Source: Hydrolagus affinis (Eukaryota). Taken from it: DNA of 64,000 nt. The stretch spans positions 310,001 to 374,000 of the forward strand of contig JAAILG010000001.1 in assembly GCA_012026655.1 (NCBI GenBank). Reading direction: 5' to 3'. Positions within the stretch are counted from its first letter, which is position 1, and each line of letters opens with the position of its first letter. This document shows positions 1-62,769 of the stretch, piece after piece. The position numbers were made by a program, and so were the translations under genes. The notes under the pieces are model-generated. The model was given only the letters and a program-made list of their open reading frames with translations. It did not search any database and was not told where the DNA came from.

Positions 1-19
1 TAAACAAAGGCTTTCTCTT

Positions 20-390
20 GGATTGGTGGATAAATGCATTATGTGGTGTAATGTTGAGCACCAAAGAACAGGAAAGATCTAGTTTTGATCGCTTTTCTCT
101 GCTGGGTTTGCTGATCTCAGCAATGGGAGCAGAATCATGGGCTCTGAGCTAGGTGGGAAACCAAACACAGTCAGGATTCCTGCCAATGATCTCTATCCAG
201 TGACCCTTGCAGAAAAGTGCATATGTATGCGGCTTGGCTTTAATACCCATCATGATCAAATAGCCAACTGGCACGCACTGCCTGGAATTACATATCACTG
301 GGATGAGGTACTGGATAGCAGCTGGAACTTGCGTAACCACACCCTAGCCTCATTCACCATCATCAAAGCGGGAGGAGAGAACAAACTGAG
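20..390 (+). mobile_element. Ancient decayed SINE, AmnSINE2-like family (copy 1)
   Basis: Blocks GCTGATCTCAGC, CAGGATTCCTGC and CTATCCAGTGACCCTTGCAGAAAAGTG align by eye with copies at 10770-11115(-), 26436-26810(+) and 62770-62930(+). Family name recalled, not searched. Confidence 0.55.
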
Positions 391-24195: not shown

Positions 24196-24794
24196 CTAAC
24201 TCTGAATCTATTATCCTTCTTTCTTCCGATGATTTACTAAAATGTAAAATGCAATACTGAAGTTAAAGTAAAATAAAGAGGAACACCATTTCTTTTTTTT
24301 TAAAGTGCCACAACTCAGACCTAATTTCAAGCTGAATGTGCAAGAATAGAGAATCTGACCTCATCCTGGAATTTGATGAAATGCCGATAGCAGAATATGC
24401 CAAAAATCCGAAAAGTTGGCTGCGAAGCTCATAGCAACAATTAGCTAGAGCAAAACTCTTCCCCACTCATTCTATACTCGCCCAGACTTACACAATGGAA
24501 ATCTCACGGATCGCTGTAATGCGCTAATGTTTCCCATCCGGACTCGTAACTTATGAACCCTGTTACGAATACTGTATTTTACCTTCACAGAATAACAATG
24601 TTGGAATAACATAATCTCTGTCACTATTCCAAGCTTGACCTTTCTCACCCTATTCCCAAATATCTGCACCATTCCTATCTCAGTGTGAAAGCTTTCAGAT
24701 GGATCAACCTTCTGTTTCCTGCTGTGCTCCCTGGTCCCAAACCAGTTTTTCCTTTCACCAGAGAAGCAATAGTAATTCAGCACCCCACTCCTAC

Positions 24795-25155
24795 CCACCT
24801 CTGTGACCTCCTAACCCCCTAACAACTTTCCCGTTCCCTCTGCTCAGCGGGCTCCAGCCTGTTCCACGTCCCTCACCCCACCAGCCCCACGATCAACAGG
24901 CAAGCCTTCAGCCACTCTGCCCCCAACCTTTGGAATTCCATCCTGCAATCCCTCACCTTGCCCCCTCTCTAGCCTCCTTCATGTCCCGCCTCAAGACCCT
25001 CCTCTTCAACCGTGCCATCGATCACCCCCTTTCCCCTCCTTCCCTCAACCCTCCCCGATCCCGACCCCAGATTTGGTCAGAATCACTGACTGGCCAGCAC
25101 CTTGGGATGTGCTCCCGACATGAAAGGTGCTATACAAACGTAAGTTTGTTGTTGA
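24795..25155 (+). mobile_element. L2 LINE 3' fragment
   Basis: Encodes decayed AFSHSAPNLWNSI...SFMSRLKTLLF (L2 ORF2 C-terminus). Similar to 42960-43288 and ends ACAAACGTAAGTTTGTTGTTG. Confidence 0.85.
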
Positions 25156-38247: not shown

Positions 38248-38520
38248 TAATAATAATAATCCTTGCATTTGATATAGCGCTTTTCACATCTTCTAGTTGT
38301 GTCAAAGCGCTTCACAGAATATACTGTAAGGTGAATTGACACACAGCAGTGTCCCACAAACAATCATAAATTGAAATGACCAATGTATTATTGTTTTTTT
38401 CTTGAGGAATTATTATCAGGCGTGTGGAGTAAGAAAACTTGCACAAGGTTTTGCCTTGCCTGGAATCGAACCCAGGTCTCTCACGTATAAGGCGAGTGCT
38501 CTAACCACTGAGCTACAAGA
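38248..38520 (-). mobile_element. Full-length family A tRNA-derived SINE
   Basis: Minus: TGTAGCTCAGTGGTTAGAGCACTCGCC...GGGTTCGATTCC (A and B boxes); tail GAAGCGCTTTGACAC...AAAAGCGCTATATCAAATGCAAGGA(TTA)n. Confidence 0.9.
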
Positions 38521-39854
38521 TTAAAGGGAACTAATAAGCAAACGCTTCCTCTCAGCAATTGCTATTCCACTTTGACATGGGAAAAATAACTGAGAAGGTT
38601 GTGATAAGAAATTTTATTTGTGTGTTAATAACTAAAACAATTAATACAATTGTTGTTTTCCAGCATAACAAACAGAACAAGAAAATAACATTTATTTAAT
38701 CTAGTGCTTTTAAAATTTATTGAACTGCCCTTAGCAGCTCAATATACAATGCTTCATACCCTCACAGTAGTGACTCATTAATGTATTTAGGACTGAGACT
38801 TGTTTTTTTACCGAATTGACTACAAAGTACTGTATATGTGTAATTCAAGCATTTCCAATTTCAAATGTTTTTATACCTCACTGAAAGACAGGGCCCTGAG
38901 CTCACCTCTAATTAACCTTTACAAATCGATTGATGTAATCAGACACTCACAATATTAGAGTATTACTCAGCTTTGGTTAATATTCCTTTATTCATTGGAC
39001 ATTTGACCAATAACTGTTAAGAGCAAATTAAGATCTTAATATCAAAGTTTACAGCCCTGAAATGCAACAGTGTTTTATGATGTCTCAGAAGTTCTGTGTA
39101 AAGATTAATAAACACGTAATACTGTATGTGAAAAGCAAAAACAAATAATTTGCTAATACTAAAAGCATCCATCTGTATGCAGACGTCTGTACAACTTAGG
39201 ATTCTCATTCAAGTCACATTTCAAGAAACATACTTTCATTTACCTGTTTATGATAACAGCAATTTCCACTGGCTTAGAATCCATCATCATTCATCAATCT
39301 ATGCCTTAGTTTTGTCTAGGTACCTTATGCCATCAATTTGATATACAAAATATTTAATATTACATCACAAGCATAGAAAGGTGTACATTACTGATAAATA
39401 ATATGTCATGGTTAATTAGCATATGAGGTAAAGCTATGTATTTATGTGATAATTTTCATTGATTATGTACAAACTTGTGCTTATTAACTTTATGTAGCAT
39501 TACAGAACATAGAGCATGAAGTTAGAAAGATTTTTAGGCTCATGTTATATTAGGGATAAAGGTCTGTTTAAAAAAATGCAAAGTTTTCTCATTAAATCAA
39601 CTCAAATGTTATTTTCAAACACATTTGTTCCAGACCGATTATTAGATTTTTGAAACCAGCTATTTTTCATCCGATTGACATGAATGGAACAAGGAAGGAG
39701 AATATTAAATAAAAGCAGCCATTTTTTTTTCTGGAAAGAGCTTTGCTTGAACTCTCTTTTGTTTATGGAGCTTCATGTTTAACTTCTGACAATAACTTAC
39801 TTTACACATCAGTATTTTCATTAATCAGGACTTCAGGGTTGAGTGTTTGAGTCT

Positions 39855-39915: not shown

Positions 39916-41756
39916 TTGAATTCACAGTTCTTCAAAGCCAATACTTGACTGTTAAACTGTGCTATGGAAAGCAACTGGTAGAGCTTTGTAGTAAATAAAA
40001 TTACAAAACAAAGTGAGGTGAAAAATGTTGCCAATATTACAAAGCAAAAGCTCCTTAAGATCACTAGCCATTCTTCTGATTTGTTTTCACAGAACAAATG
40101 GACATGTGAACTCAATGCTTGCCATTCTGTTCCCTACCTGACTCCCCCAAACTGGACAGTTACTAAATAACTATGGAATTTCTTCACATCATTTCCTTGG
40201 GACTCACCGAACACAGCACACCACAAGGCCATCTAGGCCTCCTGTTAGATTGAGAGGAATTGGATGGACCGATCTTCACAAGGGCACTTCATATCCTCTC
40301 TACCAGACTTCTAACATTTTGATAAATATGCCACACTCTTGGCAATTTGTTTTGCCAAAAGTTAAGATCTTACAGATGATTGTAATTAAATTCTATCTAG
40401 TAATACCCATATTGAATAGAGAGAGCCTAACTCTTCTAATAAAATGAATTAAAAACACACTGAAATCTTACATTTCTACATAGTTATTTATGTTTATAGC
40501 CGAAAATATAATTACCAATAATTTTTACATTGATAGAGGGTGGAAAGTAGCACTCTCCTTAGTTTGAAAGCTTGTTTTGATAGTTTCAATGCAAAGTCAC
40601 GATTTCGGATGTTGGTTCAGCCAGCAAACCAATATCATCAACTGAGTCAATCAATGATGGTGTTGGGGTAAAGTTGGGATTCAATTATCTTAAGCAAGTC
40701 TACCATTTTCTTAGATTTCAAACAATGGTGCCATCATTTACAATCCGTACATTTATCATCATGTCTTTTGCGTGATCAATGTATTAAGTGAGTCGGAAAA
40801 TCTTGCTGGTGGTGAATTATAATATTATAATATTAAAACAATCTTAATGACTTTTGATTGTGATGTGTGCAAAACTTCAACAAAGCATTGTGCCGTATGC
40901 TACGTTTCTAAAATTGTTCTGAAAGGACGCTGGGACATGTGCAACACTGCTGTACACAAATAAATTCAATTTTTCAAGTGGCAAAATCTCACTGCCTTCT
41001 GCATGAATACATCAATCATAGTGGAACCCAGAGGACCCACAGGATAAAAGAACAACACATGTTGCAGAATATTCCAGAAACTGTGAAACCTGCACTCAGG
41101 AGGTTGAATGTGCAAGACATGCATTTTTCCAATCTATATATGAAATGGGAATAGTGAGCTGTCTTGCAGGAGGAAGAAAAGGATTGAGCCAGTAAATGAT
41201 AACATGGAAGCTGGTTTTGTTTAGCCAAATAATCAGTAAAAGATAGAGACAGAATATTTTGTCCTTTCCAACCTCCATACATTTATGTACTATGTCCACG
41301 ACAGTGTAGGTGCCTTCATATAAAAAAAAAGTTGAATATTTGTTTGCACACCGTTATTGACCATATATAAGGCACAATACCTAATGTAAGGATCATTCTT
41401 ATAATTATATTGAGCCGAGAGCCAAATTACTCTGACAATTGGCGTAATAGAATGTGACATGATATGCCATTGTGTACGCCAGTGTATCCTTGATGGCACA
41501 GATATTTCGCATTGCCAGAGATCAGTTGAAACCTAGTGAAGCTGAAAATGTGTGTAATCAGCTCAATAATAACTGTACAGTTACCACTGTAGCCTTATCT
41601 AAAGGGTCTTTATGCCTAACAGTCCAAAACTCCCATTCCTCGACATGGTAATAACTTTATGATGGCACTCATGGATGAGTACTTCCGAAGGCTATTATAA
41701 GAATATTTGAAAAATATTTTCTTAATTTAGTTTTTGCATCATGTGTTTGGATGGGA

Positions 41757-41773
41757 GGGGGGGGGGGGGGGGC
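41757..41773 (+). repeat. G17 homopolymer
   Basis: Uninterrupted G run, preceded by GGGA. Confidence 0.85.
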
Positions 41774-42215
41774 GTAAAACAAATAACCCCAACAGGTTAC
41801 ACTTGAGACAGTATCCATTCAGCTGGTTCCATAAAAAAATACATTGAAGGATAGTTACCATGGAAATGTAATGCTCTCTGTAAGTACACATTCCAGGAAT
41901 CTCTCCACTGGATGAGTATTTTTAAGGGCTTGCAACTGGACCATGTTTACCATTGAAAATTAGAATTAATTTGGCTTAATTAAGTTCAATCTTCACGGAC
42001 CTGCCCTCGCCTGGTTCAATTCTTACTTTTCTCACCATCTAGATTTTGTTGCCAACAATGGTTTCTCCTCCAGCCCCCGCACTGTCACATGCAGCGTTCC
42101 CCCAGGGCTCTGTCCTTGGCCCCCTACTTTTCAATATCTACATGCTTGACGATATCATCCACAGATGTGGGGTCAACTTCCACATGTATGTGGATGATGC
42201 CCATCTCTATCTTTC

Positions 42216-42366
42216 TGCCCAAACCGTAAAATACTGCAGATGCTGGAAATCTGAATCAAAAACAGAAATCGCTGGGAAAACTCAGCAGGTCAGGCAGCAT
42301 CTATGGAGAAAGGAAAAGTGAGTCAACATTTCGGGGCCATGACCCTTCGTCAGAACTGACAACAGG
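42216..42366 (-). mobile_element. Penelope-like terminal fragment nested in L2, flanked by 10-bp direct repeat TCTATCTTTC
   Basis: Direct repeat at 42206-42215 and 42367-42376. Insert reads GATGCTGCCTGACCTGCTGAG...TTTCCAGCATCTGCAG, recalled as the shark Penelope pLTR end. It interrupts the L2 RT frame just after YVDD. Confidence 0.75.
42321..42357 (-). ncRNA. Minimal type I hammerhead ribozyme motif (slightly decayed)
   Basis: Minus: AGTT-CTGACGA-AGGGTCATGGCCCC-GAAA-TGTT-GACT. Core boxes CUGANGA and GAAA, stem II GGGUC/GGCCC, stem I AGUU/GACU. Confidence 0.65.
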
Positions 42367-43427
42367 TCTATCTTTCATCTATCCTTCTACCTCTACCCTC
42401 AATTCCAGGACCATTGATGTCCTGAGAGACAGCCTGTTGGACATCAAGTCCTGGATGAGAGCTAACTTTCTATAGTTGAATGTCAATAAGACTGAGGTCC
42501 TCCTGTTAGACTTGCGCCAGCGCCTTCACACATCAGGCACTGACAGCATCAACCTCCATAGTTGCACACTCAATCTCACCAAGCCAGTCAGGAACCTAGG
42601 TGTCTTGTTCGATCCTCAACTGGCTTTCCTCCCCCACATCCAACCCATGACCCGGTGTGCTTTCCCTCACCTCTGCAATATCATCCGACTCCACCACTAT
42701 CTCACCCCACAGGCCATTGAAATCCTCATTCATGCCTTTATCATATCCCAGGCTCAACTACACCCAACATCTTGCTTGTCGGCCTTCCCAATTCCTCCCT
42801 CTATAGGCTGCAGATAATTCAGAACTCTTTGGCCAGTGTCCTCTACCGCTTCAAGCTCTATGATCCCACCGCCCCCTCACCCGACTCCATTGGCTCCCCA
42901 TCACCCAGAGGATTCAATTCAAGATCCTGATCCTCACCTTTAAAGCCCTCCATAGCCTCGCCCCACCCTACCTCTGCGACCTCCTAACCCCCGACCAATC
43001 TCCCCTCCTGCTCTGCTCAGCAGGCTCTGGCCTGCTCCATGTCGCCCGACTCACCCTCCACACCATCGGAAGGCAAACCTTCAGCCACTTTGCCCCTAAC
43101 CTCTGGAATTCCATCCCACAGTCCCTCTGCCTCGCCTGCTCCCTAGCCTCCTTGAAATCCCATCTCAAGACCCTTCTCTTCGACAGTCTCATAGGTTACT
43201 CCAAAGCTCAGGTCTGAAACAGACTGTCCAGCACCTTTGGACATCCTCCCGACGGGAAAGGCGCTATACAAGAGTAATTTTGTTGTTACTTCCTGTTTAC
43301 AATTTTTGGTTTATGAAATTATGAGTGAAATTCACGAACCAAGCATTATAGCTAAAGCTAATTTAATCTAGTGTAGAAATATAACAAATTTGAACTAACC
43401 ATATATTCAAAAGCCAAGGTTGGTTTG

Positions 43428-47540: not shown

Positions 47541-47780
47541 AACTGAACAGGATTGTTTTAAACGTGGATTTTTTTAATCTCTGGGTTTGAAACCTGCTCT
47601 AACAAGCATTGTGGCAGCCCAACCTGTGCTCCCTCTATTATCACCATTTCTAATGTCTGCTTTGCAAAGTTCCACTAGTCCTGCATCTAACGGCCTAAAA
47701 GTAGGAGCCAGTAGCTCAAAAACTGCATGAACTTTAACCCGGAATGTACTGTGGCTCCGACATCTCTAAGAAGGTGATGC

Positions 47781-48180
47781 AGAGAATTAAATTTCAAGAT
47801 CCTCACCCTTGTTTTCAAATCCCTCCACTCCCCTGCACCCCACCCCTCCGACCTCCTCTCTCCTCAAACCAGCACCTGTTGCCTTCGATCCACCGGGTCT
47901 GGCCTCCTCCTTGTCCCCTGTATCCTCCGCTCCACCCTCGACGGCCATGCCTTTAGCCACTATGCCCCGAGGCTCTGGAACTCCCTTCCTCACTCTCTTT
48001 GCCTCACCCCCTCTCTTCCCAGTTTCACGCCTCAGCTAAAGACCTTTCTCTTCGACCGACCCTCTGGTCACCTTTCTACCCCTGCCCCTGGCTCGGTCCC
48101 GGGATCCGTTATTGTGAAGCGCTCTGAGACACCGTCCGACGTGGAGGGCGCTATATAAATCTAAGTTGTTGTTTTTGTTT
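47781..48180 (+). mobile_element. L2 LINE 3' fragment (second subfamily)
   Basis: TTCAAGATCCTC...CTCTGGAACTCCCT...CTAAAGACCTTTCTCTTCGAC; tail AGCGCTCTGAGACACCGTCCGACGTGGAGGGCGCTATATAAATCTAAGTTGTTG. Confidence 0.85.
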
Positions 48181-59800: not shown

Positions 59801-60683
59801 TCTTGCTGCCAGCATTCGAAAATGAGTTGCAATGAGACGCATGCTGAACACAACTTGAAAATAACTCCAAGGTTAATAGCTTCATCACACAGTGACAGCA
59901 TCTATAGCGCATACTTCGTGCGGTACTTGCAATAAGACGGCAGAATATAATCACTGTCAGTAAGGTATACTGCAATACAAGTGATGGCTAACTGGATAGT
60001 ATATACATTTATCTTCCAGCATATTTTAACTTTAAAGACTGCCTGGTATATTTTAAGATGGAAATTCACATTTGTAATCTTTTTTGTGCAGCCCTTACTA
60101 TGTTTTATTGTTGTTGGGGTTTCCAGGTAAATGTACAATGTGCCATACGGTAAATTTTAGCCAAACGTTAAATTTACCTATCAAAATTCTTGTTGGGAGC
60201 GTGAGTAATTTAGTGTATATTTACAGTCAGGTTGCAATCTTATAGTGCATGGTTAGTTTACTAACGATCTTAATCAAATGATTTCATACCCGGTTTTGTA
60301 ACATAGGGAGAGAGATTCAATTTCTAGTGAACTAGCTGCATTCAGCAGTGAATGTGAGTCCATATTTCCTAGCAGTTCAGTGGTGAGTGTGTGCCTGGTC
60401 CCTGGTGAATGTGGGCTGTACAGCTGGAGCTGTCTTTTGTCTAGGGGAGAGACTTGTCCTTCAGCACCAAGACTGAGCAAATCCAGAGTTTGCAGTGCAC
60501 TGTGAAAGTGGAAAGGGAGCATGCAGAGTTAAAATTATACAGACACGTGAATCCAGCAATTGAAAGATTTATTTTGTCTCCCAGAGTATAATATTCCTTG
60601 CATTTCATACAGCGCCCTATCATGTCTTTACAGGATTTACAGTAAATAATCCATACATTTGATATAGTGCCTTATCACATCTT

Positions 60684-61435
60684 CACCAAGCCAGTCAGGA
60701 ACCTAGGTATCCTGTTCAATCCTCATCTGTCTTTCCTCCCCCACATTCAAGCCATGACCTATTCTGCCTTCCCTCACATCCGCAATATTGCGGGACTCCG
60801 CCACTTCTTTAACCCTCAGGCCGCTGAAACCCTCATTCATTCCTTCATTACATCCAGGCTCGCCTACACCAATGCCCTGCTTCTTGGCCTTTCCAAATCC
60901 CCCTGCACATAATCCAGAACTCTGCAGCCCATGTCCTCTTCAGCACCAAACACCGTGAACCCATCTCTCCCATTGTGGTGTGACTCCATTGGCTCCCCAT
61001 CACTCAGAGGATTCAATTCAAGATCCTGGTCTTCAACTTCAAAGCCCTCCACAGCCTCACCCTACCCTAACTGCGACCTCCTAACCCCCTACCAATCTGC
61101 CCGCCCCCTCCGCTCAGCAGGCTTCGGCCTGCTCCGCATCCCCCGACTGATCAGCCTTTCTGCACTAAACCTCTGGAACTCCATCCCGCAGTCCCTTCGC
61201 CTCGCCCCCTCCCTGTCCTCCTTCAAGTCCCGCCTCATGACCCTCGTCTTCGACCTGCCACACTAACTCTTCCCCCTCTTCCACTCTCCTTCCCCTTCCC
61301 CCTACTTTGACCCTCCCATCCCCCCCCATTCCCCCTCCCCGTTCGGGTCCCTACCAGACTGTTCAGCGCTTTGGGACGTCCTCCTGACGGGAAGGGCGCT
61401 ATATAAGTGCAATTTTGTTATTGCTGTTGTTGTTG
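60684..61435 (+). mobile_element. 5'-truncated L2 LINE
   Basis: ORF 60667: KPVRNLGILF...AETLIHSFITSRL. ORF 60931 end: NLWNSIPQSLRLAPSLSSFKSRL. Hairpin tail plus (TTG)n. Confidence 0.92.
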
Positions 61436-61683: not shown

Positions 61684-62769
61684 AAAATCACAATCCCAGA
61701 AACAGTCGTTAGATTGAATGACCAAATTATTTTTTTTAAGGGTTTATTATACTCGGAATAATGATCCACCAATCGACTAACAGCCAGGTTCCTACTTACT
61801 GCTGGGTAAACAGAGATGTGTGGAGTAAGGAAATTTGCCCAATGTTTTGTCCTGCCTGGGAATCGAACCCGTGTATTCTCGCTTGCGAGCCAAGTGCTCT
61901 AACCACTAAGCTACAGGACTCCACAAAGTAGTTTGACTGGTATTCGTAGAGTAGTGCATATGTGGAATAGATTCCAAACAAAAGCATTTGAACCTTGCAA
62001 GTAAATCATTCAAAAAGAATTGTCTCTGAGCCAAGTTTGTCTCAAGGCACTTTTATCAGTTTGAGGTAACCTCCACATTACCATTTTCCTGAATAGTCTT
62101 TCATCAATGGATGGATGGAGGTTTAACTGTTGCAATGTGGTATTGACATATCCAGGTTTTACTTGATTTACTTACAACAACAACAAAATTACTTTTCTAC
62201 AGGCTACATCAAATTTTTATATAGATCTTTCCTTTAACAGATACAGTATGCAGTATAGAATTCATAACAGGGTAGATTCTGCCTTGACTGTGGAGACAGC
62301 AGGCTTGATGAGGCAAATGCCCTTTCCCAACTTGTTTGTCACATCTGGTAATGTGTGCGGCGCTTTGTAAAGCCATTCTCTAACTGAGGACGGGACCTCA
62401 GTTAATATCTCATCCGAAGGATGGATACAATGGTCTGAGTGAGTACACAATTTAAAACAGTATTTGGGGTTTTAAAGTAGCATTTCAATGTCTTGGATCA
62501 GAAAAATGACTTTAAGTCAGTTCCTTGTGTTTTTCTTATTGATTTTCTCCCAGCAGAAATAGCAGCGCTGCAGGGGTGAAATTTAAAGAAGGTGGTGGAG
62601 GGGGCTTGGAGAGCAATGGGAATCATGTCAGCTTATGTTGGTGGTAATTAGGAACGTGTTTGCCTTGTTCGATAACACATTACTGGCGAAAGTTATCGCA
62701 AGAAACTGGATATTGAATGTCACAAGTTTCACTCAATGCTCTTAAGGCTATGACAATGAGAATTTGAGG

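Follow-up and report, generated by a model that had tools for sequence, protein, structure and literature searches.

Terminal unit of a putative Neptune-type Penelope-like element in a Hydrolagus affinis LINE, with a fixed 5' boundary that probably marks the end of the template RNA

The insert and its host LINE

The window, that is, the whole stretch of Hydrolagus affinis DNA analyzed here (64,000 nt; contig JAAILG010000001.1, positions 310,001 to 374,000), contains on its plus strand a LINE fragment whose class is evidenced by an RVT_1 match (E 2.9e-6) and which, from its C-terminal motifs, we take to be of the L2 type (Table 1). A first look returned 3,891 candidate relatives, the best of which match at 86-89% over 142 nt. 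Other fragments related to the host LINE are located at 60683-61254, 24790-25013, and 47780-48056, in addition to shorter matches (69-84% identity), and a second locus of the host family (L199) likewise carries a Penelope unit within 3 kb. ARAGORN predicts tRNA-Ile(tat) at 38450-38523 and tRNA-Ala(cgc) at 61848-61919, both on the minus strand, which may represent the heads of tRNA-derived SINEs rather than genes.

Nested in this older mobile element is a decayed copy of a Penelope-like terminal unit, ordinary among thousands. The original prediction held that the insert breaks the host reverse transcriptase (RT) frame, and the frame indeed reads up to the insert, but excising the 161 bp that the prediction implied leaves a frameshift. 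The frame is restored by excising 42217-42388 (172 bp), with a product resembling LYLSASTL, the reading of the empty site in 14 relatives of the host family. Copies of that family align to 42219 and resume from 42378 (resumption there in 7 of the 14 loci); the target-site duplication (TSD) in the window is therefore 14 bp long with 2 mismatches, 14 bp also being the modal TSD length in the Penelope family (16 of 56 detected TSDs). The 10-bp direct repeats first reported as flanking the insert (TCTATCTTTC, at 42206-42215 and 42367-42376) do exist and occur only twice in the 64-kb window, but the true TSD is the 14-bp pair. The second 10-mer is an extra copy of target bases within a junction filler at 42359-42377, and it could alternatively stem from a later local duplication.

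The insert had been delimited as 151 bp (42216..42366), whereas its templated part amounts to the 139 bp of 42220-42358, with 8 differences from the consensus of 49 copies in 137 bases (family median 6.7%) and 89% identity to the same unit in L065, a copy with RT and endonuclease (EN). Likewise, of the ~13 nt placed between the insert start and the ribozyme core, 5 nt match the parent and 8 nt are junction filler. This 8-nt filler may well be what is left of a head-to-head (inverted) arm that folded back at CAG-TT-CTG; at this junction, at least 6 of the 100 listed copies show a perfect inverted arm (hand count).

Toward its 3' end, the unit is predicted to form, around the inner site at which reverse transcription starts, a stem-loop (AGAUGCUG/CAGCAUCU), a candidate protein-binding element according to folding models; the folds of the window copy and of L168 are no better than those of shuffles (z 0.20, 1.21, 0.35, -0.34), the first value being that of the whole window unit. 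The unit (window 42237-42302, minus strand) also presents two strong stretches resembling 3' splice sites, a pyrimidine tract followed by TAG near +52 and TTTCAG near +102, the latter coinciding with the inner start site. The family is high-copy, with 2,218 first-look candidates and 1,591 exact matches to the 3' 27-mer of the unit, compared with 0 for the control.

Table 1. Features of the insert and its surroundings (window coordinates; offsets are counted from C3 of the hammerhead core, C3 = 0)
Feature	Position	Strand	Basis or remark
Fragment of host LINE (C-terminal part of RT, 3' tail)	41983..43290	+	RVT_1 match; extent from 14 family loci
TSD, left copy, 14 bp	42206..42219	+	Empty-site reading LYLSASTL; host relatives align up to 42219
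3'-terminal pseudo-LTR unit (-5..+134), putative Neptune-type Penelope-like element	42220..42358	-	139 bp; 93.5% to family reference
34-nt "tail" between two 3' end sites (~+100, ~+134)	42220..42253	-	3' ends cluster at +97..106 and +126..134
Predicted stem-loop around inner start site	42237..42302	-	MFE and centroid, window copy and consensus
Minimal type I hammerhead, decayed	42321..42357	-	Core and stem columns
Hammerhead stem I	42357-54/42324-21	-	AGUU/GACU
Hammerhead core CUGACGA	42353-47	-	Minus-strand reading
Extra A between A9 and G10.1	42346	-	Minus-strand reading
Hammerhead stem II	42345-41/42337-33, mismatch 42336	-	U.C mismatch
GAAA	42332-29	-	
Decayed palindrome base	42328	-	
Predicted hammerhead cut	between 42325 and 42324	-	+28/+29 from C3
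8-nt filler	42359..42366	-	Resembles reverse complement of core +3..+10; one CpG change, one extra base (by eye)
Additional 10-base copy of target sequence, with one further base, in 5' junction	42367..42377	+	Perfect 10-mer inside 14-bp pair; right repeat of the original prediction
TSD, right copy, 14 bp, 2 mismatches	42378..42391	+	Host relatives resume; frame restoration

The parent element and its hammerhead

The link to Penelope put forward in the original prediction is borne out by L065, which joins on one strand an RT with FLRYIDDC, a CX4CxxC linker with CRRCNTC, an EN remnant, and the insert's own terminal unit. Walking upstream from the longer copies leads through a non-coding stretch of 280 nt to a frame that ends in LGTLQPSGLNIDFNNFRP and a stop, contains VVYCIRCSRCGLLYIGET and CQRRRCNTC, and carries FLRYIDDC farther upstream, the consensus frame being open from the linker to the stop. 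RT and, at the C-terminus, a GIY-YIG domain lie in one frame before the terminal repeat in both L065 and L206. The L035 EN aligns with the GIY-YIG domain of protein P0051 (39%, E 7e-19), which passes the Pfam GIY-YIG cut-off, and a decayed EN copy gives a weak Pfam GIY-YIG match (E 0.025). Shark and ray proteins are the closest to the RT fragment (58-66%); invertebrate RT proteins come next, and some of these carry GIY-YIG (161 matches at E<=1e-20). Comparison of the fragment with PDB sequences yielded no match at E<=1.

At the other end of the element, the sequence immediately downstream of the unit matched, in one locus, the N-terminal end of a full-length homologue, and a search with the N-terminal stretch of the ORF recovered 30 loci in which the unit continues into the ORF start, with the ATG at +168/169 in the three where it was located. 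The same repeat thus precedes the ORF start and also follows the stop, and the unit is therefore the pseudo-LTR (pLTR) end of an EN+ Penelope-like element, although no single intact full-length copy was found among the copies examined. The order of the element is minimal hammerhead, 3' end sites at +100/+134, ATG at about +169, RT, linker, GIY-YIG region, 3' UTR of 280 nt, and hammerhead unit.

The linker CQRRRCNTC, located before the C-terminal EN, follows the CX2-5CxxC pattern, which, in the portions of PMC8557442 at hand, marks Neptune and is common to Nematis, Poseidon being without this linker. Among Penelope-like clades, only Neptune and Poseidon are described as found in vertebrates (bioRxiv 10.64898/2026.07.22.740005, in part), and because Poseidon has no linker, the clade would be Neptune, an assignment made by motifs instead of a tree. 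That the insert derives from the end of this parent element is, in our judgment, close to certain.

The minus strand of the insert reads, as foreseen, CUGACGA...GAAAUGUU with AGUU/GACU (in full, CUGACGA-A-GGGUC-AUG-GCCCC-GAAA-UG-UU-GACU), and the family motif is, again in agreement with the original prediction, a minimal type I hammerhead with the palindrome AACGUU. The core-plus-palindrome pattern has 3,611 exact matches genome-wide versus 0 for the reversed control, and the motif is therefore no chance occurrence; the Rfam hammerhead check that had been proposed returned 0 matches at E<=10 over 41500-43000. The consensus of 176 copies contains the core, the extra A, stem II GGGUC/GACCC, and AACGUU, corresponding to the conserved core, the extra base at 9/10.1, and the palindromic 15.2-16.2 of minimal hammerhead ribozymes (min-HHRs). 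The stem II register proposed earlier, GGGUC/GGCCC, would need a 2-nt loop and gives way to the GGGUC/loop/GACCC of the family, in which the window copy reads GGGUC-AUG-GCCCC with a U.C mismatch at 42336.

Decay of a CpG at position 15.2 had rightly been suspected (C in 116 and T in 56 of 176 copies), but the T-to-C repair suggested for the window copy would by itself leave the mismatch in stem II. Four CpGs are the most variable sites of the family, and the core, palindrome, and stem II are all intact in 16 of 176 copies. Three subfamilies were distinguished, GGGUC-GUG-GACCC, GGGUU-GUA-GACCC, and AGGUC-AUC-GACCU with AAC after the cut site. For the stem II covariation on which the hammerhead reading had been staked, a sister subfamily shows one compensatory change, from G-C to A-U at 10.1/11.1; one-sided changes between subfamilies convert C-G to U-G in stem II and U-G to U-A in stem I. 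Such stem changes amount to one event per subfamily, and changes within the family look like neutral decay.

In the window copy, the U.C mismatch in stem II is accompanied by two G.U pairs in the dimer stem III, and its modeled dimer reaches -0.2 versus -14.7 kcal/mol for the natural intact copy L292 (14.5 worse), so that this hammerhead is likely dead as far as the models indicate. The hammerhead dimer is not the minimum-energy fold even in an intact copy, and stem I, only 4 bp long, is absent from the minimum-energy folds. Published min-HHRs cleave weakly and solely as multimers (PMC4209133, in part), and cleavage with the element's own protein is reported for the anole element (PMC11167929, in part).

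Genome-wide, at least three subfamilies can be told apart by stem II, loop II, and the sequence that precedes the boundary described below; the GGGUU-GUA-GACCC subfamily appears less decayed, comprises many long copies, and appears to be the best place to find an intact element. Seven long copies (L035, L038, L041, L050, L052, L055, and L060) begin at almost a common point (TATTCCCC), some 500 nt ahead of the ORF stop, which makes this another 5' hot spot; four of them have common upstream sequence and may represent one re-amplified composite. Besides, three groups of copies have common flanks (L033, L035, L044, L051, L052, and L056; L036, L038, L039, L045, L047, L058, and L060; L036, L047, L053, and L058) that hold other LINE pieces and tRNA-like repeats over more than 1 kb, which suggests chimeric repeats amplified as a whole.

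Boundary, start sites, and a proposed route of integration

The statistics of the family's copies weigh more than the window insert itself. The 5' ends were taken from the first 100 of the 1,591 copies selected by the 3' 27-mer alone, leaving out of the end statistics the first 29 matches, which had been selected by likeness to the window copy. Of these 100 copies, 56 have their 5'-most templated base at -7..0 from C3 and 13 have it farther upstream; of the rest, 15 stop within +1..27, 15 beyond +30, and a single one at the predicted cut (+29). This distribution upholds the idea, originally drawn from the window alone, of a non-random 5' end. The copies stop mainly at -3..-5, in both orientations, between TSDs mostly of 11-15 bp. 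Genome-wide patterns agree, with 1,232, 871, and 767 matches leaving the parent at -3, -4, and -5, respectively, and 2,154 matching to -6 or beyond; long copies make up at most 2,154 of 5,024 in this ribozyme-anchored count versus 13 of 100 in the 3'-anchored sample, and by eye about 6-17 of each 100 listed short-class copies look like mutated long ones. The boundary also holds where the unit continues into the ORF, as the upstream unit extends beyond -5 in none of the 30 ORF-start loci.

The stop rate of 0.09 per base at -8..0, compared with 0.002-0.01 elsewhere (about 0.003), is 30-fold higher at the boundary, ruling out ordinary random 5' truncation. A 3' splice site is another reading of such an end: an AG (CCCCAG/TT) after a pyrimidine tract is present, and the intron of Drosophila Penelope is described as ending at helix I (PMC4209133, in part), but the copies starting at -2..-5 have, by eye, no upstream exon sequence in common. 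Together, we regard these two readings as having a negligible chance of being correct.

The original prediction had raised the possibility that the insert is a short ribozyme-delimited mobile unit. In its strongest form, this reading would make it a separate non-autonomous element resembling a SINE or retrozyme, with masters of its own. Thousands of copies of similar length exist, many with their own TSDs, and retrozymes derive from pLTRs (bioRxiv 10.64898/2026.07.22.740005, in part). Nevertheless, the boundary lies 33 nt upstream of the cut, and the cut site itself is used by 1 of 100 5' ends (+29) and 0 of 60 3' ends (+28). The latter come from 60 upstream-anchored copies, 20 of which end at +126..134 and 8 at +97..106, with non-independent ends among them (6 at +80 with one flank in common, and about 7 at +130..134 likewise). 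Moreover, short and long copies (40 and 10) are inseparable by sequence, with a permutation p of 0.28 and distances of 0.118 (short-short), 0.122 (short-long), and 0.123 (long-long). The end is thus fixed but does not coincide with the cleavage site, nor do the copies point to a master element of their own. Most of them are single or head-to-head rather than in head-to-tail arrays, those that carry the ORF show the same boundary, and re-transcription of a unit without an upstream promoter would need explaining. A cleavage-delimited mobile unit is thus very unlikely, whether pictured as ribozyme-bounded or as having its own masters.

We propose instead that -3..-5 is the 5' end of the RNA, at which reverse transcription ran off to leave the insert, and we hold this to be probable. 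What sets this RNA end would be, with somewhat less assurance but still on the favorable side, a promoter within the pseudo-LTR that fixes the transcription start. When scored against the consensus Inr and TATA motifs, the region shows an Inr-like CCAGTTC with its A at -4 and, 30 nt upstream, a TATA-like CTTAAAAG (6 of 8 positions), in a span where 390 positions hold 4 TATA-like 6-of-8 matches and YYANWYY occurs 5 times. These motifs fit a start site, although matches of the kind are not rare. Promoters in pLTRs are described for Drosophila Penelope (PMC2377424, in part), and rotifer pLTRs carry putative TATA and Inr motifs for which promoter function is proposed (PMC3846280, in part).

The same parent and run-off could also operate on a longer transcript trimmed back to a folded or protein-bound hammerhead, whose stem I starts exactly at -4. 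Stem I begins on the very base where the boundary falls, the ends scatter over 3-4 bases, and no cap signature is seen: a cap-derived G gave no signal at the 5' junction, where 27 plain junctions included 8 with a G (p 0.39; based on 60 loci drawn from the first 64 of 100 listed). By hand count, a G precedes A(-4) in 43 of 100 copies, a figure confounded by inverted arms and stutters, and the excess of ends at C(-5) is accounted for by a start at A(-4) solely through hairpin junctions. On the other hand, stem I has only 4 bp and does not form in the minimum-energy folds, and the Inr-like and TATA-like motifs stand at canonical spacing, as putative ones do in the rotifer pLTRs; we consider trimming improbable, while giving it some weight, and retain the promoter-set start as the preferred cause. 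Among the sequencing runs listed, none of RNA contained the window stretch, which is neutral as to expression. In 4 of 12 listed runs from organisms A-C, which may not be this species, a comparison on L123 gave no pile-up of molecule starts; as the only raw reads came from a poly(A) single-cell library, this outcome does not bear on the start site. In 3 of these 4 runs, the listed matches have loose ends at 427-428 of L123 (about -2/-3), consistent with the boundary existing in related organisms but not indicating an RNA start.

The 3' side of the copies is equally structured. An inverted arm adjoins 52 of 100 copies, 30 of which end at +95..106 and none beyond +106, and in 0 of the 52 is the outer site used at both ends. 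In a separate tail test, 28 of 60 ribozyme-anchored loci were two-armed, and the tail was carried by exactly one arm in 27 of these 28 and by both in 0 (p 6e-4). Forward arms stopping at +87..98, near the second site, occur in 13 of 100 copies. TSDs were detected in 56 of 100 copies compared with 1-4 in mismatched-flank controls, in many cases immediately next to the inverted arm. The inverted 5' copies and the tail of the present family, with ends at about +100 and +134, agree with EN+ Penelope-like elements, which have 5' copies in inverted orientation and, optionally, a tail of 30-40 bp.

Because the tail sits on one arm and inverted arms end at the second site, each cut strand is suggested to prime at its own site. 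The anole element PAc shows related behavior in the portions of PMC11167929 at hand: RT starts internally at two sites that define a tail, both strands are cut and extended, the start site in the assay is the same on both strands, and hammerhead mutants still insert. The head-to-head structure and the -4 boundary could also result from self-priming through folding back at the palindrome CAG-TT-CTG, perhaps with an antisense strand as template, for which a model is in print for rotifer elements (PMC3846280, in part). The perfect hairpin junctions counted above and the common T before CAG would follow from it, but a hairpin is lacking at most starts, which fall at -3 or -4, the inverted arms terminate at the second site, often abutting the TSD, as fits target priming, and the tail on exactly one arm is left unaccounted for. 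The data favor target priming on both strands over antisense self-priming, which we rate as scarcely credible.

The best overall explanation, and in our view a probable one, is therefore a unit of a Neptune-type element with internal start and run-off at the RNA 5' end. RT would initiate internally, about 135 nt away from the 5' end of the RNA, and run off that end, yielding the window insert; initiation in the upstream pLTR would give the 135-nt run-off cDNA, and initiation in the downstream pLTR the long copies. The endonuclease would make a staggered 14-bp cut whose 3' ends both prime, one at +134 and one at +100, and this two-site priming would produce head-to-head copies with a tail at one end only. 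In the window copy, the +134 arm would have survived together with no more than 8 nt of the other arm. In many copies the forward and inverted arms overlap in sequence, something that simple twin priming on a single RNA does not account for; overlapping arms would need a second RNA or strand displacement. The template would be uncleaved RNA, with inserts not delimited by the hammerhead, and the data argue that cleaved RNA is not the template.

In a set of composite insertions (L216, L221, L228, L232, and L235), a unit that begins at about -4 extends 140-1,000 nt into the ORF start, and another unit, covering -4 to +92..134, comes next. These insertions may record template jumps from the RNA 5' end, which could explain partial tandems. 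A tentative extension of the scheme, which we think more doubtful than not, envisages a dimeric RT-EN that cuts 14 bp apart, uses the outer site on one strand and the inner on the other, and runs off the start 4 nt before the hammerhead, with jumps building tandems and the dimer hammerhead acting as a decapping switch. If true, the thousands of stubs would be a genomic record of the mechanism of Penelope integration, and the hammerhead would remove RNAs from the template pool in a concentration-dependent manner, not serve as a template processor. In the full-text literature that was searched, neither the run-off nor the one-site-per-strand reading was found in print.

Comparison with known systems

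In LINE-1 twin priming, the second target strand primes internally, generating a 5' inversion, and in retroviruses, strong-stop DNA is a short cDNA that runs off the RNA 5' end. The internal second-strand priming proposed here resembles the former and the short run-off cDNA the latter, but the second site is fixed and the arms often overlap; unlike LINE-1 and the retroviral strong-stop reaction, there is neither a poly(A) tail nor a tRNA primer.

Non-LTR retrozymes (PMC7229834 and bioRxiv 10.64898/2026.07.22.740005, both in part) are likewise non-coding, carry type I hammerheads, are related to pLTRs, measure 150-450 bp, and have TSDs of more than 4 bp. However, they form head-to-tail arrays cut to unit-length RNAs by canonical ribozymes, whereas the present copies are mostly single or head-to-head, with a minimal ribozyme and ends off the cut site. 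The window holds a single copy, the 100 sampled loci contain no arrays and few two-unit cases, and cut-site ends are confined to the single 5' end and absent 3' ends reported above (1/100 and 0/60).

Relative to the min-HHRs described in the portions of PMC4209133 at hand, the family has the same CUGANGA/GAAA core, extra base at 9/10.1, G10.1-C11.1, 4-bp stem I, palindromic 15.2-16.2, and thousands of dispersed single motifs. It differs in its 5-bp stem II with a 3-nt loop, the U at position 17, and the A10.1-U11.1 of the sister subfamily, and the window copy is decayed in stem II and palindrome.

Among EN+ elements of the Neptune type, the TSD mode of 14 bp contrasts with the 8-10 bp of rotifer examples, and more than half of the sampled copies here are the terminal unit with a fixed 5' end, a proportion for which the portions of PMC8557442 and PMC3846280 at hand give no such quantification. 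The Poseidon element PAc of Anolis (PMC11167929, in part) has in common with our family the two internal RT start sites defining a tail, with both strands cut and extended in vitro and hammerhead cleavage dispensable for insertion. PAc belongs to a different clade, its ribozyme overlaps the ORF start, and its start sites lie inside the ORF, whereas here all of these are in the 5' UTR upstream of the ATG at about +169; in addition, no strand difference is described for PAc in those portions, whereas in our genomic copies the outer site serves a single end.

The architecture, the tail, the inverted copies, and the type of ribozyme have thus all been described before for Penelope-like elements. 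What bears on Penelope-like integration, on head-to-head repeats with a one-ended tail, and on the role of minimal hammerheads is a set of sharp numbers, namely a 5' limit at -3..-5, two starts separated by 34 nt, of which the outer serves only one end, a stagger of 14 bp, and almost no ends at the cleavage site.
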